From Carcharhinus amblyrhynchos (taxonomy: Eukaryota), in assembly GCA_965287045.1 (NCBI GenBank), contig OZ336882.1, positions 6,696,001-6,760,000 on the forward strand: a stretch of 64,000 bases of DNA, in the 5' to 3' direction. Of the stretch, positions 1-62,165 are shown piece by piece. The notes under the pieces are model-generated. The model saw only the letters and a list, made by a program, of their open reading frames with translations, was not told where the DNA came from and searched no databases. Within the stretch, counting starts at the first letter, position 1, and each line of letters opens with the position of its first letter. The translations under genes were made by a program, and so were the position numbers.

Positions 1-925
1 TAATCTCGAAACTTTTATTTTCTTCGAAATCGATCAGTGCTTTCACTCGAAGGTTTCCTGTTGTGCGCTCCAAGGTAAAGAGCTTTCGCACTTTATCGGG
101 ATTGTACTTACCAAGGTAATACTCTATGTCGCTATTTAATCCTTCATCCGTGTCGGTTGCGTTAAGTTTGATCACCAAAGTACCCACCGGCATGTTTTCC
201 AATAATTTGACCGTGTACAAAGACTGGTGAAATATAGGTGAGTTGTCATTTGCGTCCAAAACTGCAACGGTAATGCGAGCAGTGCCAGATCTCTCTGGTG
301 AACCACCGTCAATGGCTGTTAACAGTAAATGATGCATGGCTTCTTTTTCTCGATCCAATGCGTTTTGTAGGACGAGTTCCGCTAATTTACGTTCACCGCG
401 AGTCTGTACCTCCAAAATGAAGTGCTTGTTTGAACTGAGCTGGTACGTACGTACTGAATTTACACCCACATCAGGATCGCGTGCGTCTTCCAAGGGGAAG
501 CGCATACCCGGTGAAGTTGATTCAAAAATGTCCAAATAAATCTCACCATTAGGGAAACTGGGGGAATTGTCATTTATATCCAGAATTTCGACCTCAGCAC
601 GATACAAATTCACAGGGTTTTCAGTCACTATCTCCAGTGGAATAACGCAAGTAAGGCTGCCTTTACACAGCTGTTCCCTATCTATTCTTTTGGTCACAAA
701 TAATATTCCATTGTTCAAATTCACTTCGAAATACTGTGGATGCGGATCAGAGATGATTCGCAAGCTAAGATCTGATAGTTCTTTTAATTTTAAACCCAAG
801 TCGTTTGCGATATTCCCAACAAAAGTACCTTGCTCCAGCTCCTCGGGAATGGAATATCGGACCTGCCCAGAAACGAGATGACAGATACAAAACAGCAAAA
901 TGGAGGACAAAGCTGTTCTTTCCAT
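1..925 (-). CDS. Pcdh: Clustered protocadherin variable exon, gene 1 (signal peptide, EC1, EC2, most of EC3; runs off the window start)
   Basis: Manual translation from ATG at 925: MERTALSSILLFCICHLVSGQVRYSIPEELEQGTFVGNIANDLGL...IDREQLCKGSLTC...ILDINDNSP...RFPLEDARDPDVG...LDRE...AIDGGSPERSG...VLDANDNSP...ATDTDEG...IDFE. Absent from the ORF track because its stop is outside the window. Confidence 0.95.
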   Translation of the reverse strand, partial: MERTALSSILLFCICHLVSGQVRYSIPEELEQGTFVGNIANDLGLKLKELSDLSLRIISDPHPQYFEVNLNNGILFVTKRIDREQLCKGSLTCVIPLEIVTENPVNLYRAEVEILDINDNSPSFPNGEIYLDIFESTSPGMRFPLEDARDPDVGVNSVRTYQLSSNKHFILEVQTRGERKLAELVLQNALDREKEAMHHLLLTAIDGGSPERSGTARITVAVLDANDNSPIFHQSLYTVKLLENMPVGTLVIKLNATDTDEGLNSDIEYYLGKYNPDKVRKLFTLERTTGNLRVKALIDFEENKSFEI

Positions 926-6160: not shown

Positions 6161-6306
6161 CCAGAGAATGAAAATAAATCAGCAGGGGAGTGCATTTCGA
6201 TACATAGTCCCTTTCAATGACTTCAATCATTTTCTGAGTATATTACTCAAATTGTGGATGAAAATTAGCAGACAAGCTTGACAATAATGTGGATTATGTT
6301 GCATAC

Positions 6307-7118
6307 TGCAGTATCAGTGGAGAAGTGTGAGGTAATTCATTTCGGTAGGAGTAACAGATGTGTTCAGTATAGGGCTAATGGGAGGACTTTGAATAGTGTG
6401 GAGGAGCAGAGGGATCTAGGTGTATGTGTACATAGATCCCTGAAGGTTGGGAATCAAGTAGATAAGGTTGTTATGAAGGCATACGGTGTCTTGGCGTTTA
6501 TTGGTCGGGGGATTGAATTTAGGAGTCGCAGCGTCATGTTGCAACTGTACACAACTCTGGTGCGGCCGCACTTGGAGTACTGTGTGCAGTTTTGGTCCCC
6601 ACATTACAGGAAGGACGTTGAGGCTTTGGAGAGGGTGCAGAGGAGGTTTACCAGGATGTTGCCTGGTATGGAGGGGAGGTCATATGAGGAGAGACTGAGG
6701 GATTTGGTGTTGTTTTCGCTGGAAAGAAGGAGGCTAAGAGGGGATCTTATTGAAACATATAAGATGATTAGAGGTTTAGATAGGGTGGATAGTGATAGCC
6801 TTTTTCCTCGGATGGAGAATGCTAGCACGAGGGGGCATGGCTTTAAATTAAGGGGTGGTAGTTATAGGACGGATGTCAGGGGTAGGTTCTTTACCCAGAG
6901 GGTGGCGAGGGATTGGAATGCCCTGCCTGCTGCGGTTGTAAATGCGCCTAGTTTGGGGGCGTTTAAGAGATCTATGGATAGGTTTAAGGACGAAAAGGGA
7001 TTGGTTTAGATTAGTGGGTCTGTTTATTTTAAAAAAAAACTGGTCGGCGCAACATCGTGGGCCGAAGGGCCTGTTCTGCGCTGCAATGTTCTATGTTCTA
7101 TGTTCTATGTTCTATGTT
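6307..7118 (+). mobile_element. Young 5'-truncated CR1 (HER1-like) LINE, subfamily A
   Basis: Uninterrupted ORF2 C-terminus (KCEVIHFG...VRPHLEYCVQFWSPHY...RGRFFTQRV), (TTCTATG)n tail, candidate TSD CATAC at 6302-6306 and 7119-7123. Confidence 0.93.
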
Positions 7119-8125: not shown

Positions 8126-8607
8126 TTAGAAAAAACTGGTTTTTCCTCTGTTTAATACTAACCAGCCTTGGCAACATATCTTTCAGACTAGTAAGGAGGT
8201 GGCGCTCTCTGATAGCACCTTGAGCTTTTAGGCTGATGCATTAATGCATTTCCTCTCGAGCAGAGCGGAGCTTGTTTCGTTTTTTGAGATAACCGCAAAT
8301 GTAATGAGAGTTCTAGCAAGTTTAATGAGTTGGGAACTGATCTGAAGATCTATAATGCAATGGCATAGTCACGATTTAGATACTTTAATTTACCTTCAAA
8401 AAATTGTTTACTTCATGCAGATGAATTGTTAGCTTCTGCTTCAGAGCAGATGTAATGTTAATACGGTGATCAACATGTATCAGACCTTTTAAATTTTGTT
8501 TTGGAATAATTAAGATGTCATCAAAAATCAAGAATATGCGCTGGGAGACACTTGGGACTTTTAATCCGGATACAAATTCACACATGACAGAGAGAGAGAA
8601 AGTCCCA

Positions 8608-9773
8608 TACTTCAGCAAGGCGTTTGATAAGGTCCCCCATGCAAGACTTCTTGAGAAGGTGAGAGGGCATGGGATCCAAGGGCCTTTGGCCTTGTGGATC
8701 CAGAACTGGCTTGCCTGCAGAAGGCAGAGAGTGGTTGTGGATGGGGCTTTTTCTGAATGGAGGTCAGTCACCAGCGGAGTGCCTCAAGGATCTGTTCTGG
8801 GACCCTTGTTGTTTGTCATTTTCATAAATGACCTGGATGAGGAAGTGGAGGGATGGGTAAGTAAGTTCGCTGATGACACGAAGGTCGGTGGTGTTGTGGA
8901 TGATCTGGAAGGATGGCAAAAGTTGCAGCAGGACATAGATAGGATGCAGGACTGGGCGGAGAAGTGGCAGATGGACTTCAACGCGGATAAATGTGTTGTC
9001 GTCCATTTTGGCAGAACCAACGGGATGAACGAGTACACTATTAAGGGCAGAAGTCTGAGTAGTGTTGAGGAGCAGAAGGATCTTGGGGTCCGGGTCCACA
9101 GGACTCTTAAATCGGCCTCGCAGGTGGAGGAGGTGGTCAAGAAGGCGTATGGTGTACTGGCCTTCATTAATCGAGGGATTGAGTTTAGGAGTCGGGAGGT
9201 AATGCTGGAACTTTATAAGACCCTTGTCAGGCCTCATTTGGAGTATTGTGCGCAGTTCTGGTCGCCTCACTATAGGAAAGATGTAGAAGCTATTGAAAGG
9301 GTGCAGAGGAGATTTACAAGGATGTTGCCTGGACTGGGAGGCATGCCTTATGAAGTTAGGTTGAGGGAGCTGGGACTCTTTTCCCTGGAGAGACGAAGGT
9401 TGAGAGGCGACCTGATAGAAGTTTACAAAATGTTGAGAGGAATAGATAGGGTGGACTCTCAGAGGCTATTTCCCCGGTTTGAAATGGTCGCTACGAGAGG
9501 ACACAGATTTAAGGTGCGGGGAGGGAGGTTCAGAAGTGATGTTAGGGGTAAGTTTTTCACTCAGAGGGTGGTGAGTGAATGGAATCGGCTGCCGTCAGTG
9601 GTGGTGGAGGCGAACTCGCTGGGGTCTTTTAAAAGACTTCTGGATGAGTATATGGGGTTTAATGAGATTGAGGGTTATAGATAGGTCTGTAGGTTGGTAG
9701 GTGATGTGGTCGGCGCAACTTGTGGGCCGAAGGGCCTGTTTGTGCTGTAGTGTTCTATGTTCTATGTTCTATG
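8608..9773 (+). mobile_element. Young 5'-truncated CR1 LINE with open RT domain
   Basis: ORF 8515..9684: FSKAFDKVPH...GVPQGSVLGP...SKFADDTK...LVRPHLEYC; (TTCTATG)n tail. The first ~30 aa of the ORF are flanking DNA. Confidence 0.95.
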
Positions 9774-20461: not shown

Positions 20462-22107
20462 CATAAGAACATAAGAAATAGGAGCAGGAGTAGGCCAACC
20501 AGCCCTTCGAGCCTGCCCCGCCATTCAATAAGATCATGGCTGATCTGTCATGGCTCAGTTCCACATTCCCGCCCGCTCCCCATAACCCTTAATTCCCCTC
20601 TCTCTTATCAAAAACCCATCAACCCGCGTCTTAAAAATATTTAGCGAGGCAGCCTCCGCCACTTCAACGGGCAGAGAATTCCAGGGATTCACCACCCTTT
20701 GAGTGAAGAAGTTCCTCCTCAACTCCGTTCTAAACCGCCCCCCCCCCCCACTTATCTTGAGGCTATGCCCCCTAGTCCTACTATCCTTTCTGAGCGGGAA
20801 GAGTCTCTCCACCTCTATCCTATCCATCCCATTCATCATCTTATACGTCTCAATGAGATCTCCCCTCATTCTTCTAAACTCTAACGAGTACAAGCCTAAT
20901 CTATTCAGCCTCTCCTCATAGCTCAACCCCCTCAACTCTGGCATCAGCCTAGTAAACCTCCTCTGCACTCCCTCCAAGGCTAAAATATCCTTGCGTAAGT
21001 ACGGCGCCCAAAACTGCACACAGTACTCCAGCTGCGGCCTCACCAACGCCCCATACAGCCGCGGCAAGACCTCCCTACTTTTATATTCAATCCCCCTCGC
21101 GATGAAGGCCAGCATCCCATTCACCTTCCTGACCACCTGCTGCACCTGCAAGCTGAGTTTTTGCGACTCATGCACAAGGGCCTGGAGGTCCCTCTGCACC
21201 GTCGCCTGCTGCAGTTTTTCTCCACGTAAGTAATAATCCTTCCTACCATTATTCCTACCAAAGTGGACCACCTCGCACTTGCCAACATTAAATTCCAGTT
21301 GCCATTTTCTGGCCCATTCGCCCAGCCTATCTAGATCCTTCTGTAGACTCTCCCCACCCTCCGCACAATTTGCCGTTCCACCAATTTTGGTGTCATCAGC
21401 AAATTTCGACACCCTGCACTCGGTTCCCTCCTCCAGATCATCTATATAAATGGTAAATAGCTGAGGCCCCAGCACCGACCCCTGGGACACTCCACTAGTC
21501 ACCATCCGCCAATCCGAATAGCACCCGTTGACCCCGACTCTCTGCCTCCTATTTGACAACCAGTCCTCTATCCACGCTAACACCCTACCCCCAACTCCAT
21601 GCCCCCTGACCTTCTGTAATAACCTCTTGAGGTACCTTGTCAAACGCCTTCTGAAAATCCAGAAAGACCACATCCACCGGCTCTCCTCTACCCACCGCCC
21701 TAGACACATCCTCATAGAACTCCAGTAAATTTGTCAGACACGACTTCCCTTTAAGGAAACCGTGCTGCGTCTGCTCTATCAAGCAGTTCCCCTCAAGATG
21801 CCTCGCTATTTCCTCCTTGATGACGGATTCTAACATTTTACCGACAACAGACGTTAAACTAACAGGCCTATAATTCCCCGCCTTTTGCCTGGCACCCTTC
21901 TTAAACAACGGCGTAACATTAGCCGTTTTCCAAACTTCCGGCACTTCCCCGGAATCCAGCGACGTCTGGAAAATAACCACCAAGGCATCCACTACCACCT
22001 CCGCCATTTCTTTCAGGACCCTCGGATGCATTCCATCCGGTCCTGGGGACTTGTCCACAATCAGCCCCTCCAGTCTGTCGAGCACCACCTCTCTAGTAAC
22101 AATACTA
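20462..22107 (-). mobile_element. Young 5'-truncated CR1 LINE, subfamily B, with one frameshift near 21630
   Basis: ORFs 21585..22088 and 20555..21715 join into ORF2 (DKSPGPDGMHPRVLKE...NYRPVSLTS...DFQKAFDKV...SKFADDTK); (TTCTTATG)n tail; TSD GATAA at 20457-20461 and 22108-22112. Confidence 0.95.
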
Positions 22108-43904: not shown

Positions 43905-46307
43905 TTATTGCTTCACAACGTTGTCATGAACCGTAATGTCACTCAGGGGTAAAGTGGGATGGGAGGTATTTAGGAACAGAAAATCACTCTTGGATGATTC
44001 TGGCGATAAGCGAACCGTGTACCGATGAGTTTCGGAAACAGGGAGCGTCTGGCCAGCTCCATAATAATGCAAAGCTTCTAACTGTCTGGCTCTGCGATGA
44101 AAGACATCATTGGAATTTCTACGCATGCAGCAACTGCAACAGGAAGGGCTATGGTGACCTGTGTAATTTTGGTCTTTCCTGCACTTCAGGACAATCAAAA
44201 CTATAATAGTTGCGAGAAATATGACACTCGTTGAACCAAATATTATTATTAAATACATATTTAGATCTGAGACGTAAGCTCTGCTTCTGAAATGATCTAC
44301 ACCGTCAGTCGCGCTTTTTGTAATATTCGCCTGAATCGTAAAGAAGATTGTGACCGTGCTTGATAGACTCGGCTGTCCATTGTCCTTCACCAAGACAACC
44401 ACTCTTTGTGCGGTGGCGTCTTTTTCCGTCAATCTTTGGGTAGTTCTGATTTCTCCAGAGTAACGGCCCACAGTGACAAGACTCAGATTAGAAGTCTCAG
44501 AGAGCTGGTAAGAAAGCCGTGCGTTCTGGCCGGAATCAGCGTCATCAGCAATTATCTTGGTGATTAAGTAACCTGGATATGTTGACTGAGGTATAATCAC
44601 CACTTCTGCCGTTTTGTTCCACGTTAGAGGTGAAGTAATAAGAGGAGCATTGTCATTTTGATCCAAGATAATAACGCTAACCATTGACGTAGTGCTCAGC
44701 CGCGGTGTTCCAGCATCCTGCGCTTGAACTTTGATGTGCATTTTCTTTAACTGCTCATAATCAAATGATTGCAGTGCATAAATTATTCCACTTTTCGAGT
44801 TAATAGTAAAGTAAGCAGGCGCGGGTGTGTCTGGCATTTGATTTTCCAGAATGGAATATGAAATGTCTCCATTTTGGTCCAAATCGGCGTCCAGAGCAGT
44901 AACCGAAAAAATAGATGCACCTGGAGTATTGTTCTCCATCAAATACAAATTGTAATTGGATTGTGTAAACCGCGGGGCGTTGTCGTTTATATCAGAGACC
45001 AAAACGACGATTGTTTTGTTTGCTGAAAGTGCGGGTGACCCAGCATCCCACGCTGAAACGGAAACGTTGTACCGTTCAATCGTTTCACGATCGAGTATAT
45101 CTGTGGTCACCAACTTGTAATGATTCTTTAAAGCAGTTTCGAGTTTAAACGGCATGTTGAGTGGAATCTGGCATCGAACGCGCCCGTTTTCTGCAGTGTC
45201 TCTGTCTGTAACACCAAAAACAGCGATCACGGTACCCGGCGCCGCATCTTCTGATACCATTTTGGTTGCTGAGTTCAGTTTTATTTCCGGAGTGTTATCA
45301 TTCACGTCGAGTATTCGAATCATAACTTTGGCATGCCCAACATTTGGTGCATTGTCCACAGCTTGTACCGCAAGCTCATAAACATCGGCGGCTTCAAAGT
45401 CCAGCAAACCTTTAACTCTAATCTCTCCGCTGTCTGCGTTCAAACTGAACAACTCGCGCTCTCTTTGTGAAGCGTAATTACTAAATGAATATTTAAATTC
45501 AGCATTTGTGCCTTCGTCCAAATCAGTTGCATGCAGCTTTACCACCAATGTACCTTTGGGTGAGTTCTCAAACACACTTGATCTGTACACTTCGAGGTCG
45601 AATACAGGCGCGTTGTCATTAATGTCTGCTACGGTAATGATAATCTGAACTGTGCCAGATCTCTGCGGGGTTCCACCATCAATAGCCGTCAAAATCAATG
45701 CAAAGGTTGATTCTTGTTCGCGATCCAAGGGTTTGTCCAACAGCAATTCAGCGATTTTGCTCCCGTCGTTTATTGTCTTCATCTTTAGGACGAAATGTTC
45801 ATTCGAGCTAATGTGGTAATTGCTTATAGTGTTTGTACCTACGTCTGGGTCCTGCGCGCTCTCGAGAGGGAAGCGTGTTCCTGGTGTAATTGTCTCTGCC
45901 ATCTGCAATGTCATTATCCTTGCCGGAAAAGTGGGTGAATTATCATTGACATCTAATATCTCCACTTCGACAGAAAACATGTCCACTGGATTTTCCACCC
46001 CGAGATGTAAAGAAACAGTGCAGGTGGAGCGTGCCATGCAAAGCTGTTCCCTGTCGATTCTTTCATCAACGATTAAAATCCCATTTTCCACATTTACCTC
46101 GAAATATTGCTTTCCACCATCAGAGAGCAGCTGAAACTTTCGAGCTGATAATTCCTGAACGTTTATCTTTAAATCGTCAGCGATGTTTCCAACAAACGCA
46201 CCGATTTCCAGCTCCTCTGGGATTGAATAGCGTATTTGCCCGCCAGCCAGATCCGGCATGAAAAGCAACAACATATAAAATGCTCCGGCTCTGGGTTCAG
46301 TCGCCAT
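43905..46307 (-). CDS. Pcdh: Clustered protocadherin gene 3 (800 aa single ORF)
   Basis: Signal peptide, six cadherin repeats, EC1 LCMARSTC, TM YLIIIFGSTSVIFLATIIVLIVL, Cys cluster, YTVRLSPESSKSDFLFL. Confidence 0.97.
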   Translation of the reverse strand: MATEPRAGAFYMLLLFMPDLAGGQIRYSIPEELEIGAFVGNIADDLKINVQELSARKFQLLSDGGKQYFEVNVENGILIVDERIDREQLCMARSTCTVSLHLGVENPVDMFSVEVEILDVNDNSPTFPARIMTLQMAETITPGTRFPLESAQDPDVGTNTISNYHISSNEHFVLKMKTINDGSKIAELLLDKPLDREQESTFALILTAIDGGTPQRSGTVQIIITVADINDNAPVFDLEVYRSSVFENSPKGTLVVKLHATDLDEGTNAEFKYSFSNYASQRERELFSLNADSGEIRVKGLLDFEAADVYELAVQAVDNAPNVGHAKVMIRILDVNDNTPEIKLNSATKMVSEDAAPGTVIAVFGVTDRDTAENGRVRCQIPLNMPFKLETALKNHYKLVTTDILDRETIERYNVSVSAWDAGSPALSANKTIVVLVSDINDNAPRFTQSNYNLYLMENNTPGASIFSVTALDADLDQNGDISYSILENQMPDTPAPAYFTINSKSGIIYALQSFDYEQLKKMHIKVQAQDAGTPRLSTTSMVSVIILDQNDNAPLITSPLTWNKTAEVVIIPQSTYPGYLITKIIADDADSGQNARLSYQLSETSNLSLVTVGRYSGEIRTTQRLTEKDATAQRVVVLVKDNGQPSLSSTVTIFFTIQANITKSATDGVDHFRSRAYVSDLNMYLIIIFGSTSVIFLATIIVLIVLKCRKDQNYTGHHSPSCCSCCMRRNSNDVFHRRARQLEALHYYGAGQTLPVSETHRYTVRLSPESSKSDFLFLNTSHPTLPLSDITVHDNVVKQ

Positions 46308-46406
46308 CCTTTTGAATGTTGCTGAATATCTGATTTCCTGGTAAAGGAATCAATCTCCGCCTTCCTTTATTTCAACGAGAAGTCTGTTTGCATCAAAATG
46401 CCGATA

Positions 46407-46454
46407 TTAAATACAAAAATGCAGAAACGCGAACAGAGCAATCTTGCCGAACAT
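46407..46454 (-). CDS. Candidate 15-aa upstream ORF in gene 3 leader (MFGKIALFAFLHFCI)
   Basis: GCAGCCATG context, ATG at 46454, TAA at 46409..46407; homologous uORF at 61960..62007. Confidence 0.55.
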   Translation of the reverse strand: MFGKIALFAFLHFCI

Positions 46455-46531
46455 GGCTGCGTGAGGAAAAGCAAGCACTGTGTCTCCTTCCTTCCCAGTT
46501 TAGTCTGAGTTTGATGATGTCTGTGGGGGTA

Positions 46532-46617
46532 GATCTCTCGAAACATCGCAGCTCCGTATTGGCAGACAGCGACACAAAGAGCCTTAACCAATTACTGCAC
46601 CAAGCTTTTCTTAAAGC
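46532..46617 (-). promoter_or_regulatory. Pcdh gene 3 promoter: CSE + CCAAT module
   Basis: Sense TGCAGTAATTGGTTAAGGCTCTTTGTGTCGCTGTCTGCCAAT (CSE 46577..46558), plus GAGATC and GCTTTAAG motifs. Confidence 0.87.
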
Positions 46618-47592
46618 AAGCTTGTCTTGCAATTATTTATATTGTATTTGCAAGTGTTCAGTAAAAATACCCGCACGCATTTAATTGCATTGTCACATTG
46701 TGGCACGTAAAACAGTGCGTATTCAAATTCGAAAATGTGCTTTCATTGTCATTATATTCTAGAAAATAAACAAAAAATTATCATAGCCACATAGCTTTCA
46801 TTTGCTGGCAATCATTGATCTTTGTTGAAAATAAAGTTTAAAAAACTGAATCAATTTGCACATTTCCTACCCTTGGAAGTTGATTGGAAACTGTGTTTTA
46901 CTGAATGAATAGCTTGCGCGGAAAACAAGTATTTTTTTTAACCATAGGTGATATTTTTGAATTAACTGAAATTGAAGGTTTTCAAGACTTTTGCTGAATC
47001 TTCCCTAAGCCTGAGTTCGATCTCAGTACTGTCCCTAGTCGGAAATGACGCACAGCCAATAACTACCGCTGCATCTATGATTTTCTCATGCTGCCTAAGA
47101 CGCGCCTTGGGGATTGTTGGTATGAAATACAGAAATGTTTAATTATCCACTTTTTCTAATGATGCTGTTAAACAGGGCGGAAGACTTTTTTGTCGGCTAG
47201 AATTGAGAATAAGTCTGTGACCACTTCTTTTGACATTCAATTACATGTGCGTAAAGATGGTACCACGAAAACGATTTTTTTCTTGTGCGCAGGCAACATG
47301 TTATTCTAATCGCTGAGAAGACAAATCTCAGGGAAAATGTGATATACGCAGACAGAGCTGCCCTCTGCTGGATATGCAGCTGCTTTACTTCATTTCAAGT
47401 CTGGAGTAAAAAATACAGGCAATGTGATGGGATGAAGCGCAATGTTAAACTTTGTTTCATACTTTTTCATTTATATTTTGGATGTACCATGGCTCGTTGA
47501 AGCTAACCTCAAAATAACCTAAGTTTGCTTTTGTAATTCAATATTGTAATGAAAAACACATGTGTATGCATTTATAAAGTATTCCGCACATT

Positions 47593-48320
47593 ACATAAGA
47601 ACATAAGAACATAAGAAATAGGAGCAGGAGTAGGCCATCTGGCCCTTCGAGCCTGCCCCGCCATTCAATAAGATCATGGCTGATCTGTCGTGGCTCAGTT
47701 CCACTTTCCCGCCCTCTCCCCATAACCCTTAATCCCCTCTCTTATCAAAAACCCATCAACCCGCTTCTTAAAAATATTTAGCGAGGCAGCCTCCACCACT
47801 TCAACGGGCAGAGAATTCCAGAGATTCACCACCCTTTGAGTGAAGAAGTTCCTCCTCAACTCCGTTCTGAACCGCCCCCCCTTTATCTTGAGGCTGTGCC
47901 CCCTAGTCCTACTGTCTTTTTTGAGCGGGAAGAGTCTTTCCACCTCTATCCTATCCATCCCATTCATCATCTTATACGTCTCAATGAGATCTCCCCTCAT
48001 TCTTCTAAACTCTAACGAGTACAAGCCTAGTTTATTCAGCCTCTCCTCATAGCTCAACCCCCTCAACTCCGGTATCAGCCTAGTAAACCTCCTCTGCACT
48101 CCCTCCAAGGCCAAAATATCCTTGCGCAGGTGCGGCGCCCAAAACTGCACACAGTACTCCAGCTGCGGCCTCACCAATGCCCTATACAGCTGCAGCAAGA
48201 CCTCCCTACTTTTATATTCAATCCCCCTCGCTATGAAGGCCAGCATCCCATTCGCCTTCCTGACCACCTGCTGCACCTGCAGGCTGGGTTTTTGCGACTC
48301 ATGCACAAGGACCCCGAGGT
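47593..48320 (-). mobile_element. Young 5'-truncated CR1 LINE, subfamily B
   Basis: Open ORF2 C-terminus (47695..48348) nearly identical to 20555-21190; (TTCTTATG)n tail. Confidence 0.95.
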
Positions 48321-48869
48321 AAAAACAGTTGGTGAGCATCAGAACCATCGCTGTGCATTAGTAGCATTTAGAGAGAAAAAGAACGGTCATATAACATAAA
48401 TTATTTTCTGCAATATTGACCTGGTTGTCTCTTTTTCTTCATCAACGTTCGCATTTTCAGAGAGCAGATAAGCATTAGGATCACGAGCTCAATTCAGACA
48501 TATTTTAGTTTTGATTTGTTTTTCAATGAACCCTTCTCGAGCACAATATGAATTTTCTGAGTTCCACATTCTTTATCTACAAAAGTATCTTAACGCTTCG
48601 TATTTCCTTCCAGGTTTTACAGAGAGTTTCTGTATTAATTCCCATGCTGCTTCCTTTTTTTGCGACACATCCATTATCTTTCCTTTTTTGCTTATCTTTC
48701 TCTATATCTATATATGGATTCGTGAAAGTTGCGTACTCTTGCGAATATTCTCTCGGATTGATTTTATTCTTGGACGTTATCAACATTCATGGGTCTTCTT
48801 GGTCAGAGGAACATGGATGTATTTTGGGTCCACATCTCGGATCGTCACCCTAAAGCATACACCTTTCTG

Positions 48870-53099: not shown

Positions 53100-56000
53100 A
53101 CACAATCAGTCTCTGGAACAATACGAGGTCAGCAGATATGATCCACCTAAAAGTTGGGAGGGATTTCTGAAAGGTTTTCTGTGATTTTTTTGGCTCTCAG
53201 TCGAATTAGGAAAGAGGCTCGATTGGATGTAAAGCTGGGGAATGAGGTGAGCGAAGTAGACCAAGCGTCTGTTGTAGAATACTTATTTAAAAACGGTCAT
53301 CGGATGATAAGTTTGAGATCAATAACGGAGAAGGGACAGAAACAAAACTATGAAATACAACTTTAAATATAGAAGAAACCAAACATCAGTCAGACGAGAC
53401 CGGAGTTAATCCAGTAAAATGGAACCAAGGCTTGATAGGAACAAGTATAAGAGAACAATGTATGCCCTTAAAGAAAGATTTATTTCAGGTACAGGCGGGG
53501 CACATGCCACAAAACTGAAATACATGGGAAGCAAATTCATGTTTCATTGGATTGCCAAGCATGAAGGGAATGTGAAGACATAAGAAGGCCTGCCTGTAAC
53601 CTGTCAAGTGAATTCGCCAAACAAGAACAGCGCCAAAAAAAAAGTTACGGCGGATAGTAAAATAGAAAAGGAGATTGGCAAAGGGAGAATGAAAAGGAAT
53701 TGAACATGAAATTGTGTCCAAACTTTTCCATCAGCATGCAGCAACAAAGCAGGCGATATGATGCAGGGTGGACCGATTAGGGAGGAAGAATGTGGTATGC
53801 GCTCAAAAATCAGGGCGAGAGCAGTGTACTTAATGTGAACTTGTATTTGCCTTTTTTTAATAAAGAGGAGGGTCCTGACAAAATAGCGGAAGCAGAGAAG
53901 TTTAATGTGGAGAAGTGTGAGGTAATTCATTTCGGTAGGAATAACAGATGTGTTGAGTATAGGGCTAACGGGAGGACTTTGAATAGTGTGGAGCAGAGGG
54001 ATCTAGGTGTATGTGTACATAGATCCCTGAAAGTTGGGAATCAAGTAGATGAGGTTGTTAAGAAGGCATACGGTGTCTTGGCGTTTATTGGTAGGGGGAT
54101 TGAATTTAGGAGTCGCAGCGTCATGATGCAACTGTACACAACTCTGGTGCGGCCGCACTTGGAGTATTGTGTGCAGTTCTGGTCCCCACATTACAGGAAG
54201 GATGTAGAGGCTTTGGAGAGGGTGCAGAGGAGGTTTACCAGGATGTTGCCTGGTATGGAGGGGAGATCCTATGAGGAGAGACTGAGAGATTTGGGGTTGT
54301 TTTCGCTGGAAAGAAGGCGGCTAAGAGGGGACCTTATTGAAACATATAAGATGATTAGAGGTTTAGACAGGGTGGATAGTGATAGCCTTTTTCCTAGGAT
54401 GGAGAAAGCTAGCACGAGGGGGCACGGCATTAAATTAAGGGGGGGTAGTTATAGGACTGATGTCAGGGGTAGGTTCTTTACCCAGAGAGTGGTGAGGGAC
54501 TGGAATGCCCTGCCAGCTGCAGTTGTAAATGCGCCTAGTTTAGGGGCGTTTAAGAGATCTGTGGATAGGTTTATGGACGAAATGGGATTGGTTTAGATTA
54601 GTGGGTTAGTGTTGTTTTTTTTTAAAAGCTGGTCGGCGCAACATCGTGGGCCGAAGGGCCTGTTCTGCGCTGTAATGTTCTATGTTCTATGTTAAGTTCG
54701 GGTTAAAAATACAATGAGCAGCGTGTACTTGAAAGGGTAACAATGCTAAGCATGGATAGATTTTCTGATATGGATAGGTTACATCTTGGTTCCTAAGGTA
54801 AATGAGAGAAGTGATACTGGATGGCTCGCCGTGACTATAGAATCCCTGCAGTGCAGAAGTGGCCACTCGGCCTATCGAGCCTACATCGACTCTCTAACGG
54901 CATGGCCCTCTCAACCGCCATGTCGCCGTTATCCTATTCGTTTACCATGACTAATCTATTTAACCTAGACATCTAGGTGCACAAAACGCAATTTAGCACG
55001 GCCAATCATCTAAATGCACAAAAGGTGTGGGTTAGGTGGATTGGCTATGCTAAATCGCGATAATTTTGGAATCCCTATGGGAATTTGCTGGACGATATGA
55101 CGGTGGCAATGTAGCTGTTCAGGAAAGCGTTCAAAGATACTCCTCGCAAAACTAGCTGGGTCGGTTTAACGTTAGTGGTGAGGAATTTGCACTTGACAAC
55201 GAGCAGGTATTTGAAGATGTTTGAGTGAGTTACTGAAAACCAGCACGGGTTTTTGGAAGCAAGTCATGTTTACTCAACGTAATTGATTTTACTGATGAAA
55301 TGATGGAGTGGTTTGATAAGAAGGATGCGGCAGAGGTAGCCTGTTTGTATTTGGTAAGCACAAGGGTGGTTAATAATACTAAAGGTCATGGAATATGAGG
55401 CTAATGTCAGCGTGGCCTTAAAAATAGCCCAAGGAGATAAAACTGGGAGTTATATTACATGTCTGTTTTGCAGGCTGGAGAAGAATAGAGAGTGGTGTTC
55501 TTCAACTATCAGTGGCAGAACCATTGTATTTTCTTTCTCAACATTTCGAACTTTGTCAATGAAAGCAACGTTGGGTAGCAGGCAAACAAAATCGGGTGCA
55601 TCAGAATATTGATGTGATAGCCGAATGGGCAGGATATGCAGACAAATAATAGTTTACTGCAGGGTAGCTAAAGATGGTTCACTGAAGCAGGGGTGATAGG
55701 GAGGGCTAAATGGAACGACTGCCAATTTCTAAAGAGTGTGTAGAAACGTAAATAAATCCGTTAATTAGGCATAACATATTGCGCGAGTAATTGGCAAAGC
55801 ATATGGGTTTACTGGCTTTATAAATAGAAATATGTGGAAACGCACGGAAGTTAATTCAAACGTTATCAAGCTCGTGTTAGGACATAACCAAAGTATAGTG
55901 CCAAGTTCTGGTCACAACAGTATAGTAATAAAGTGAGGGTCCCCCAGATGGTCTACTGAGCAGTTACTTTAGTTGTAACACAGTTCAGAAAGTTGAGCTA

Positions 56001-59452: not shown

Positions 59453-61870
59453 TTACTTCTTCATGTAGGCATTACCAACAGTGGCGTCACTCAGAGGTAA
59501 CGTAGGATGGCAAGCTTTTAAGAATAGAAAATCGCTTTTGGAGGACTCCGGCGATAAGCGAACTGTATAACGATAAGCTTCGGAAAATGGTTGCAGCTGA
59601 ACATCTCGATGATAATTTAAGGATTCTTTTGGTTCAGATCTCCGAATAAAGGCATCATTCGAATTCCTTCTTACGCAACAACAGTAAATTTTCGGTCTCT
59701 GATAAGGCAAGTTATTTCGCTCTTGTTTGCATTTCAAAGTGACCAGCAAGACAATTATTAGAAAAAATATGACACTTGTTGCCGCAAAAAATATTATTAA
59801 GTACATATTTTGATCCGAGAAATAGTTGGAGTGACTGGATTGGTCAATACGTTCAGTTTGGCGTTCAGTAAAGTTCGGTGAAATTGCAAACAGAATTGTC
59901 ACCACGCTTGACAAACTCGGCTGTCCATTATCTTTGACCAGAACAACCAATTTTTGTTTGGTTGCGTCTTTCTGCGTAAAACTTCGGGTTGTTCTGATTT
60001 CTCCAGAGGAACGGCCCACAGTGAAAAGCTCACCATCAGTGGCGTCAACCAATTCGTAGGAAAGTCTTGCGTTCTGGCCAGAATCTGCATCATTAGCCAT
60101 TACTTTAGTGACCAGATATCCAGGATATATTGACTGGGGCAAAATCTTCACTGCTTCTGAACTATTCGAGGGTAATGGTGAAATTACGAGGGGAGCGTTG
60201 TCGTTTTGATCCAATATTATAATGTTCACCATAGCAGTGCCGCTCAGACGTGGAGATCCGTCATCCTGAGCTTGAACTTTGAACTGGAAATTCTTCAACT
60301 GCTCATAGTCAAAGGAGCGCAGAGCAAAAATGCTCCCACTTTTCGAGTCAACAGTAAAGTAATCAGGCGCAGCCAGATCTTGCTTCTCATTGTGCAGAAT
60401 AGAGTAGGAAACGTCTCCATTCTGTTCCACGTCAGGATCCAGCGCGGAAACTGAAAAAACAGATACACCAGGAGTATTGTTCTCCGTCAGGTACACGTTG
60501 TATGAGGTCTGTGCAAACCTGGGGACATTATCATTAATATCAGCAACAGAAACGGTAACCATGTTGTTTGAAGACAGAGCGGGTAATCCAGCATCCCATG
60601 CTGATATTGATAAGTTGTAAAACGCTGTCGTTTCGCGGTCCAGCATATCAGCAGTTATTATCTTGTAGTTATTTTTCAGAGCAGTTTCAAGTTTGAATGG
60701 CACATTGTGAGGAATTTGACATTGCACCTGCCCATTGTCTCCTGAATCCCGATCCACAACGCTGAATACAGCAATCAATGTGCCTGCCACAGCATCTTCG
60801 GGCACCATTTTAATTACTGAAGTCAGTCTTATTTCGGGCGCGTTATCATTGACGTCAACTATTGAAACCAACACTTTAGCATATCCCACGTTTAGAGCGT
60901 TGTCAACAGCCTGTACATCAAGCTCGTAAAGCTCTGATTTTTCATAATCCAGTGAAGCTTTAACTCTGACCTCTCCACTTCCCGGGTCCAATTCGAACAA
61001 TCCTCGCGCAATTTGTGAGACATAGTTACTAAAGGAATATTTGAACTCAGCGTTTGTTCCTTCGTCTAAATCAATTGCGTGCAATTTGGTCACCAATGTA
61101 CCCTTGGGTGTGTTTTCCAAGACACTTGCCCTGTATACGTCCTGATCGAATACTGGCGCGTTATCATTAGCGTCCCTTACAGTAATGACAATCTGAACTG
61201 TGGCAGACGTTTGTGGGATCCCACCATCGACAGCCGTCAATATCAGTCCAATAGATGATTGCTCTTCGCGATCCAATGATTTCGTCAACAACAGCTCAGC
61301 GATTTTTCTACCATCTTTTTGTGTCTGCGTGGTGACGTTGAAGTAGTCATTTGAACTGATCTGGTAAATGCTGATACTATTGGTACCCACATCACCGTCC
61401 TGCGCGCTTTCCAGAGGGAAACGTGTGCCTGGTGAAACTGACTCGGCAACCTGCAATACTAATCTCTGAGTCGGAAATATTGGCGAATTGTCATTTGTAT
61501 CTAATATTTCCACTTCAACGGGAAAAACCTCGAATGGGGCTTCGAGCGCGAGTTCAAATGATACGGAACAGGTAGACATTTTCGAGCAAAGCTTTTCCCT
61601 ATCAATTCTTTCGTGAACAAACAAAATCCCGTTCTCCACATTTACCTCGAAATATTGTTTTCCACCATCAAAATGCAGTTGAATCTTCCGAGCTGATAAT
61701 TCCCGTATGCTTATCCTTAAATCTTCTGCGATGTTTCCAATAAAAGTACCAATCTCCAGTTCCTCTGGAACCGAGTAGCGAATTTGTCCGACAGCCATGT
61801 CCGCGACACAAAGCAAAACCATTAAACACGCTGTTCCGCTGTGTCTATTCGCCATTGCTTTGTATTTCAT
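59453..61870 (-). CDS. Pcdh: Clustered protocadherin gene 4 (805 aa; likely start at the second Met, 61855)
   Basis: Signal peptide, six cadherin repeats, EC1 LCSKMSTC, TM, YTVRLSPESSKSDFLFLK; closest paralog of gene 3 in the window. Confidence 0.97.
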   Translation of the reverse strand: MKYKAMANRHSGTACLMVLLCVADMAVGQIRYSVPEELEIGTFIGNIAEDLRISIRELSARKIQLHFDGGKQYFEVNVENGILFVHERIDREKLCSKMSTCSVSFELALEAPFEVFPVEVEILDTNDNSPIFPTQRLVLQVAESVSPGTRFPLESAQDGDVGTNSISIYQISSNDYFNVTTQTQKDGRKIAELLLTKSLDREEQSSIGLILTAVDGGIPQTSATVQIVITVRDANDNAPVFDQDVYRASVLENTPKGTLVTKLHAIDLDEGTNAEFKYSFSNYVSQIARGLFELDPGSGEVRVKASLDYEKSELYELDVQAVDNALNVGYAKVLVSIVDVNDNAPEIRLTSVIKMVPEDAVAGTLIAVFSVVDRDSGDNGQVQCQIPHNVPFKLETALKNNYKIITADMLDRETTAFYNLSISAWDAGLPALSSNNMVTVSVADINDNVPRFAQTSYNVYLTENNTPGVSVFSVSALDPDVEQNGDVSYSILHNEKQDLAAPDYFTVDSKSGSIFALRSFDYEQLKNFQFKVQAQDDGSPRLSGTAMVNIIILDQNDNAPLVISPLPSNSSEAVKILPQSIYPGYLVTKVMANDADSGQNARLSYELVDATDGELFTVGRSSGEIRTTRSFTQKDATKQKLVVLVKDNGQPSLSSVVTILFAISPNFTERQTERIDQSSHSNYFSDQNMYLIIFFAATSVIFFLIIVLLVTLKCKQERNNLPYQRPKIYCCCVRRNSNDAFIRRSEPKESLNYHRDVQLQPFSEAYRYTVRLSPESSKSDFLFLKACHPTLPLSDATVGNAYMKK

Positions 61871-61959: not shown

Positions 61960-62007
61960 TTAAACCCCGAAATTCATCATTGCAAGCAGAGTGATCCTGC
62001 TAAACAT
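61960..62007 (-). CDS. Candidate 15-aa upstream ORF in gene 4 leader (MFSRITLLAMMNFGV)
   Basis: GCAGCCATG context, ATG at 62007, TAA at 61962..61960; aligns without gaps to the gene 3 uORF. An extra in-frame ATG lies at 62019. Confidence 0.55.
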   Translation of the reverse strand: MFSRITLLAMMNFGV

Positions 62008-62079
62008 GGCTGCAAACATCAGTACATATTCTGTTTCCCTTCCCTTTGATTCTGGTCTATATTTGATGAAGGAGTGGTA

Positions 62080-62165
62080 GATCTCTAACAACGGCAGAGT
62101 ATGGTATTGGTAGACAGCGACACAGACAGCCTCAACCAATAACTGCATCAGGCGTTTCTTAAAGC
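62080..62165 (-). promoter_or_regulatory. Pcdh gene 4 promoter: CSE + CCAAT module
   Basis: Sense TGCAGTTATTGGTTGAGGCTGTCTGTGTCGCTGTCTACCAAT (CSE 62125..62106), plus GAGATC and GCTTTAAG motifs. Confidence 0.87.

Follow-up and report, generated by a model that had tools for sequence, protein, structure and literature searches.

Introduction

Upstream open reading frames (uORFs) with a conserved peptide include those of AMD1 and the fungal arginine attenuator peptides. The shark frame described here resembles them in being a short frame that opens with AUG ~100 nt ahead of a main start and aligns without gaps between some paralogs, but it differs in having no fixed peptide or length, in a pN/pS close to that of out-of-frame reading and in its loss from 5 of 14 paralogs; conservation of the start codon was found, whereas conservation of stop and frame and a low dN/dS were not. 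A second point of comparison is TISU, whose sense-strand letters are ATGGC. Like the shark element, TISU is YY1-like, stands downstream of its promoter and has an AUG inside it that a stop may follow, although its orientation is opposite to that of the shark uORF element (PMC2518114, partial text).

YY1 sites in human cells work at the transcription start or immediately downstream of it, with NF-Y sites upstream (PMC11269187, partial text), and the shark element likewise lies downstream of its CCAAT boxes. In probes of human Pcdh-alpha promoters, the site that YY1 binds overlaps the CSE (PMC3333863, partial text), whereas the shark element lies ~110 nt further on. YY1 binds GGCCATTTT and AGCCATTTT probes, and probes with A or G at the first consensus base are still bound (PMC1904287, partial text). 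The middle base varies among the shark paralogs, which would agree with such a site, but the form with at most one mismatch is found in only 7 of 71 promoters. The CSE is a CTCF site in mammals (PMC7811963, partial text), and the present cluster resembles the protocadherin locus of cartilaginous fish, with its several subclusters (delta, epsilon, mu and nu; PMC2764143, PMC7811963, partial texts).

Results and Discussion

The window (the whole 64,000-nt stretch of DNA that was analysed) lies in a large protocadherin cluster. With residues 1–136 of gene 3 as query, at least 78 protocadherin matches were obtained in its own genome (150 of 161 candidates scored), and at least 77 variable exons stand in tandem on a single strand of contig C13, between 5.93 and 7.51 Mb. 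Three constant-tail matches lie at 7.48, 6.41 and 5.87 Mb; the position between constant tails suggests a mu-like group, judging from the order given in PMC2764143 (partial text). Assignment as clustered protocadherin variable exons follows from single long ORFs with a signal peptide, cadherin repeats and Cadherin_C_2, arranged as a tandem array with CSE promoters and common downstream constant exons. A CGCT-box CSE is found ~240–330 nt before the ATG in most variable exons, and most leaders have in common a CSE joined to a CCAAT, with a GATC box ~25 nt further on.

Addition of 74 paralog leaders from outside the window (L numbers below) brought the comparison set to 78 leaders. In an EC1 tree of 111 columns, with bootstrap values that had not settled, genes 2, 3 and 4 and L001–L012 form one clade (96/80), within which gene 3, gene 4 and L001 cluster (100/98); L032–L034 fall on the other main branch.

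Table 1. Features of the gene 3 and gene 4 leaders and donor-like sites in other leaders. Positions are those of the window unless a paralog is named.
Feature	Position	Strand	Remarks
Gene 3 clustered-protocadherin variable exon ORF	43905..46307	−	800 aa; Cadherin_2, 5 Cadherin stretches, Cadherin_C_2
Gene 3 second uORF	46367..46393	−	8 codons; ATG altered in organism D
Gene 3 15-codon uORF	46407..46454	−	ATG 46454 to TAA 46407; MFGKIALFAFLHFCI, then stop
Gene 3 YY1-like element GCAGCCATGTT	46450..46460	−	spans the upstream ATG; called from motif, position and conservation
Gene 3 GAGATCTAC box	46529..46537	−	25 nt after CCAAT start
Gene 3 CSE (CGCT box) fused to CCAAT	46558..46576	−	sequence comparison with paralog leaders
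Gene 3 second, reversed CCAAT (ATTGG)	46588–46592		
Gene 4 protocadherin variable exon ORF	59453..61855	−	800 aa; same domains as gene 3; extra in-frame ATG 61870
Gene 4 15-codon uORF	61960..62007	−	ATG 62007; MFSRITLLAMMNFGV, then stop; 19 codons from in-frame ATG at 62019
Gene 4 YY1-like element GCAGCCATGTT	62003..62013	−	motif match
Gene 4 CSE + CCAAT	62106..62124	−	
Splice-donor-like site, L038–L045	80–90 nt before main ATG		
Splice-donor-like site, L050–L067	~102–125 nt before main ATG		
Splice-donor-like site, L013–L022 and L024	63–96 nt before main ATG		
Splice-donor-like site, window gene 1	~1012		

Upstream frames of genes 3 and 4

The first-pass annotation had described a 15-codon uORF in the leaders of both genes and read it as a hydrophobic micropeptide under selection. 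Both frames are indeed present (Table 1), with the common GCAGCCATG context and TAA that had been described, and their 48 nt align without gaps. The distance from the CCAAT, given earlier as ~100 nt, measures 108 nt in gene 3 and 103 nt in gene 4, and the spacing to the main ATG was likewise borne out, the stop lying 99 nt before it in gene 3 and 89 or 104 nt before the two in-frame main ATGs of gene 4. The codons for F2, I5, A9 and F13 differ between the two genes, as had been noted. Codon position 2 holds 1 of the 16 differences (P=0.003; 0.01 after multiplication by three) in this pair, which was chosen by eye for its coding-like look and is the most extreme at position 2 among 36 pairs. 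The further in-frame ATG 12 nt upstream of the gene 4 uORF ATG and the second uORF of gene 3 were absent from the earlier description, as was the presence of at least one upstream ATG in 68 of 71 anchored paralog leaders. The Kozak context of the uORF ATG is moderate, with G at −3 and T at +4.

Conservation across paralogs and orthologs

Fourteen leaders of the gene 3 subfamily were aligned, gene 2 being excluded for want of an ATG in the corresponding column. The uORF ATG is present in nine of them and is replaced by ACG in L002–L004, by CTT in L005 and by ATT in L008. A neutral simulation, limited to substitutions and run on a tree whose branch lengths are those of the leaders, predicts 2.3–2.4 ATGs in 14 paralogs (P 0.0005–0.002 for the nine seen). 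Start, homologous stop and open frame are intact together in 4/14, where 0.5–0.6 copies are expected neutrally (P 0.004–0.011); with the ATG held fixed, however, the 4 intact copies among 9 do not differ significantly from the 1.6–2.2 expected (P 0.08–0.19). The excess of ATGs is thus significant while that of open frames, given the ATG, is not, which places the constraint at the ATG and not demonstrably on the frame. Retention across the family therefore holds for the start codon but fails for stop and frame.

The lengths of the frames point the same way: the nine ATGs open 15, 15, 15, 15, 24, 15, 19, 13 and 8 codons, and the 15 codons of L006 arise through a deletion and a different stop. 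The homologous TAA is retained in L002–L004, though the ATG is absent and the frame shifted, and in L012, where an earlier stop closes the frame. The lost stop of L010 is weaker evidence, since L010 may be a broken gene. Among the nine ATG-bearing paralogs the peptide GRAVY ranges from −0.91 to 1.89. The in-frame pN/pS of nine gapless paralogs is 0.78 for codons 2–15 and 0.90 for codons 3–15. The two other frames give 0.73–0.88, signal peptides 0.56 and EC1 0.34, and the low dN/dS expected of a selected peptide did not materialize. For the gene 3/gene 4 pair the ratio is 0.54–0.69, with 0.55–0.60 in the +1 frame. Changes at codon positions 1, 2 and 3 number 15, 16 and 21 in L007–L012 and 23, 21 and 26 in all nine gapless copies.

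Contigs of organisms C and D span both leaders, and differ from the gene 3 region at no fewer than 26 (C) and 32 (D) sites over 1101 nt. Among the differences listed, the gene 3 uORF has one synonymous change in both organisms; in organism D it also carries L7A (two bases), F10C and I15F, that is, at least 4 nonsynonymous changes in 48 nt. The gene 4 uORF has one synonymous change in C and G14R in both. When the ortholog changes listed are pooled, 2 are synonymous and 5 nonsynonymous, against an expected synonymous share of 22% (P=0.48). The power of this test is low, since even the coding control yields 11 nonsynonymous and 7 synonymous changes. The mature coding region of gene 3 has 13 changes over 436 nt and its uORF at least 5 over 48 nt (P=0.025, differences listed). 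The ATG and stop are retained without indels in all four ortholog comparisons, where neutral retention would be 73–90% each, and positions 46450–46461 show no changes in either organism among the differences listed.

A YY1-like element at the upstream start

The conserved unit around the ATG is (A/G)GCCATNTT, also written (A/G)GCCATGTT, which is one mismatch from the YY1 consensus CGCCATNTT and in the gene 3 subfamily stands 103–119 nt after the CCAAT, or 98–113 nt beyond the CSE/CCAAT block. The most conserved base is the last T of CCATNTT (14/14, P=0.002), followed by the A (13/14), the G at −3 (12/14) and the G of the ATG (12/14, P=0.056). Genes 3 and 4 have both the CCAT core and TT at positions 8–9, in the form AGCCATGTT. 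Matches with at most one mismatch occur in 5 of 14 subfamily members and in two of the three paralogs L032–L034. A scan for such matches to CGCCATNTT covered 71 anchored promoters, 7 of the 78 being excluded for want of a CCAAT–GATC anchor or because they lay outside the scanned list. On the sense strand the CCAAT+100..124 bin holds 7 of the 13 matches, in 7/71 promoters that are drawn from three clades and are not independent; any other sense bin holds at most one, and the chance from shuffling is ~0.01–0.02 per gene.

The middle base of the element is G, C or T across paralogs, yet G in 12/14 within the subfamily. L032 and L034, of the distant subfamily, read AGCCATCTT, with C for G and hence no AUG, while L033 and L008 read GGTCATT, with T at this base.

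What the upstream frame represents

Because the paralogs keep mainly the letters around the start, and not the peptide, these data argue for a likely YY1-type site over a micropeptide. The conservation is local, versions without AUG exist, the frames vary in length and no family-wide coding signature is present. To judge from the sequences, the feature is real, and most probably a promoter element of an ordinary kind instead of a conserved micropeptide. On balance we favor a YY1-type promoter element whose G form spells AUG, with the 15-codon frame inherited, as the probable account. A YY1-like DNA site with residual paralogy had been raised earlier as the alternative to the micropeptide, and it fits better, since L032 and L034 carry a version of the element that lacks the AUG. 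Family-wide selection on a hydrophobic micropeptide finds no support, given the varying length, sequence and hydropathy, a pN/pS in line with that out of frame and the four nonsynonymous changes in organism D gene 3.

The conserved last T of CCATNTT, which Kozak context does not call for, speaks for a YY1 site. Several observations speak against it: the CCAT core is gone from L001, although its ATG and 15 codons persist; L009, which also retains ATG and 15 codons, lacks the first T; and G stands at the middle base in more copies than a free base needs. The scarcity of codon-position-2 changes in the gene 3/gene 4/L001 clade and the retention of ATG and stop in the orthologs weigh on the same side. 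The motif GCCATNTT is short and is not enriched in the window (13 vs 11.5 expected), and most of the 71 promoters are without the element. The published probes carried T, not G, at the middle base (PMC1904287, partial text).

A promoter mechanism for the YY1-type element can be proposed. Extrapolating from mammalian work, CTCF would occupy the CSE and NF-Y both CCAAT boxes. Motif, position and evolution suggest that the predicted YY1, at or just downstream of the start, would help to set or strengthen initiation once the promoter has been chosen. The free middle base would happen to be G in the gene 3 subfamily, giving AUG, and the 15-codon frame would be a leftover of a duplicated ancestral leader, likely drifting or decaying. 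Given a transcription start upstream of the AUG, a fraction of scanning ribosomes may initiate at that AUG and lower protocadherin output, presumably as a tolerated side effect, whatever the peptide. The significance is modest: the protocadherin promoters of cartilaginous fish would gain a likely YY1-type downstream element in their CSE–CCAAT–GATC grammar. The case also illustrates that comparing just two sequences can give a promoter motif the look of a conserved micropeptide.

Rather unlikely, in our estimate, is selection of the AUG itself, such that a sequence-independent uORF of any short length lowers translation of these isoforms, possibly as a dual DNA/RNA element. The excess of ATGs and the G at −3 in 12/14 would fit, as would the closing of all nine AUG frames well before the main ATG (8–24 codons) and the retention of the AUG in L001 and L009, where the YY1 match is damaged. 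A precedent is TISU, where a YY1 site doubles as a translation start (PMC2518114, partial text). Among the sequencing runs listed as containing this sequence, none is recorded as RNA. Run X1, which we guess to be RNA, contains an identical, ungapped 248-nt contig (46465 to 46218) that begins 11 nt ahead of the AUG and reaches the coding region unspliced; a further X1 contig extends to 374 nt upstream of the CSE of a different paralog, and these contigs are thus no proof of mature mRNA. The contigs of runs X1 and X2 do not cover the gene 4 leader and are neutral there. Selection on the AUG is harder to reconcile with the absence of the ATG from 5/14 paralogs and from gene 2 of the same clade, with conservation of the TT after the ATG, for which there is no translational reason, and with non-AUG versions in the equivalent place; upstream ATGs are in any case common (68/71 leaders). 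Were the AUG or the peptide functional, a translational layer would be added to protocadherin isoform choice. A full-text literature search, with most subscription journals and all supplements outside it, returned no paper on a protocadherin uORF or translational layer among the matches listed.

We consider it improbable that the letters are something other than a YY1 site, whether an initiator at the transcription start itself, whose +1 would be the A of the ATG and which would put the AUG too near the cap, the site of another factor, or slow drift of the duplicated leaders. YY1 is identified here by motif match only, and it appears as an initiator-binding protein in the reference list of PMC2518114 (partial text). 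The leader trimers AGA, CAG and GAA, at −60 to −71, are kept in 10–11 of 14 paralogs, more than the ATG is. Pure drift, however, does not yield nine ATGs or a last T in 14/14, and the extension of the X1 contig 11 nt upstream of the ATG argues weakly against an AUG near the cap.

Conversion of the YY1 site into the start of a selected 15-codon hydrophobic uORF in one shark protocadherin clade is quite improbable; if true, isoforms of the clade would gain their own translational brake atop stochastic promoter choice, and the element would be read as both DNA and RNA. Very doubtful is a hydrophobic micropeptide or ribosome-arrest peptide selected solely in the gene 3/gene 4/L001 clade. All three of these genes hold the start, the homologous stop and 15 codons, and their peptides are basic at position 4 and largely apolar thereafter. 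Their changes by codon position are 12, 4 and 11 (position 2 = 4/27, P=0.028), compared with 7, 4 and 12 for real signal peptides, and 0/344 overlapping non-coding control windows are as uneven. Set against this are a pN/pS of 0.76–0.95 within the trio, a position 1 as variable as position 3, an amino-acid identity of 2–4/13 over codons 3–15 and a hydropathy not above base-shuffled nulls (P 0.17, 0.08, 0.57). In gene 3 the L7A, F10C and I15F changes of organism D add two position-2 changes, and both gene 4 orthologs have Arg at codon 14. The original claim of peptide selection thus lacks family-wide support, and a weak coding-like signal at position 2 remains in this trio.

Several other candidates were rejected. 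A vestigial in-frame signal peptide is incompatible with a frame that is 0, 1 or 2 relative to the main ATG among paralogs; a 5'UTR intron in the gene 3 subfamily finds no support, with no common donor-like site and an ungapped X1 contig; and identity with TISU fails on a sense strand that reads CCATGTT rather than the ATGGC orientation. The consensus fold of the gene 3 and gene 4 leaders (two sequences) is weak, at −6.75 kcal/mol. Rfam gave no matches at E<=1 in 46250–46750, and the promoter pattern gave none in a metagenome scan.

Other features of the cluster

Around the main ATG (46307, 61855, L001–L012) the letters are often A/CAATGGCG or AAGATGGCG. This context is YY1/TISU-like in the opposite orientation, and these main ATGs are nearer to TISU than the uORF ATG is. 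The GAGATC(T/C) box, 21–25 nt after the CCAAT (46529–46537 and 62075–62083), is kept nearly cluster-wide, even where the CGCT box has decayed. This is the case in L049–L073 (C13, 5.93–6.11 Mb), where CCAAT and GATC persist beside a degenerate CGCT box (10–15 of 19 consensus matches), which points to a changed use of CTCF there.

L028 (C13, 7.51 Mb), L027 (7.28 Mb) and L035 (6.37 Mb), three isolated variable exons that have no clear CSE, group together in the tree and resemble C-type or single-gene subcluster members. Short open frames in L010 (534 aa), L014 (201 aa), L019 (569 aa), L021 (187 aa, with internal stops) and L037 (205 aa) suggest broken variable exons.

Donor-like sites were called in the leaders by the splice-donor consensus. 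The forms AAG|GTAATG or (C/A)AG|GTATTT occur in the 5' leaders of three other paralog groups, not in the gene 3 subfamily (Table 1), and could be leader splice donors to the constant exons or promoter-proximal U1 sites. Between the genes of the window lie reverse-transcriptase fragments at 8515–9684 (+), 20555–21715 (−), 6287–7009, 47695–48348 and 53790–54596. RVT_1 matches were obtained in two of the four intergenic fragments tested, and the remaining ones are similar by eye; the fragments are probably truncated LINE copies.
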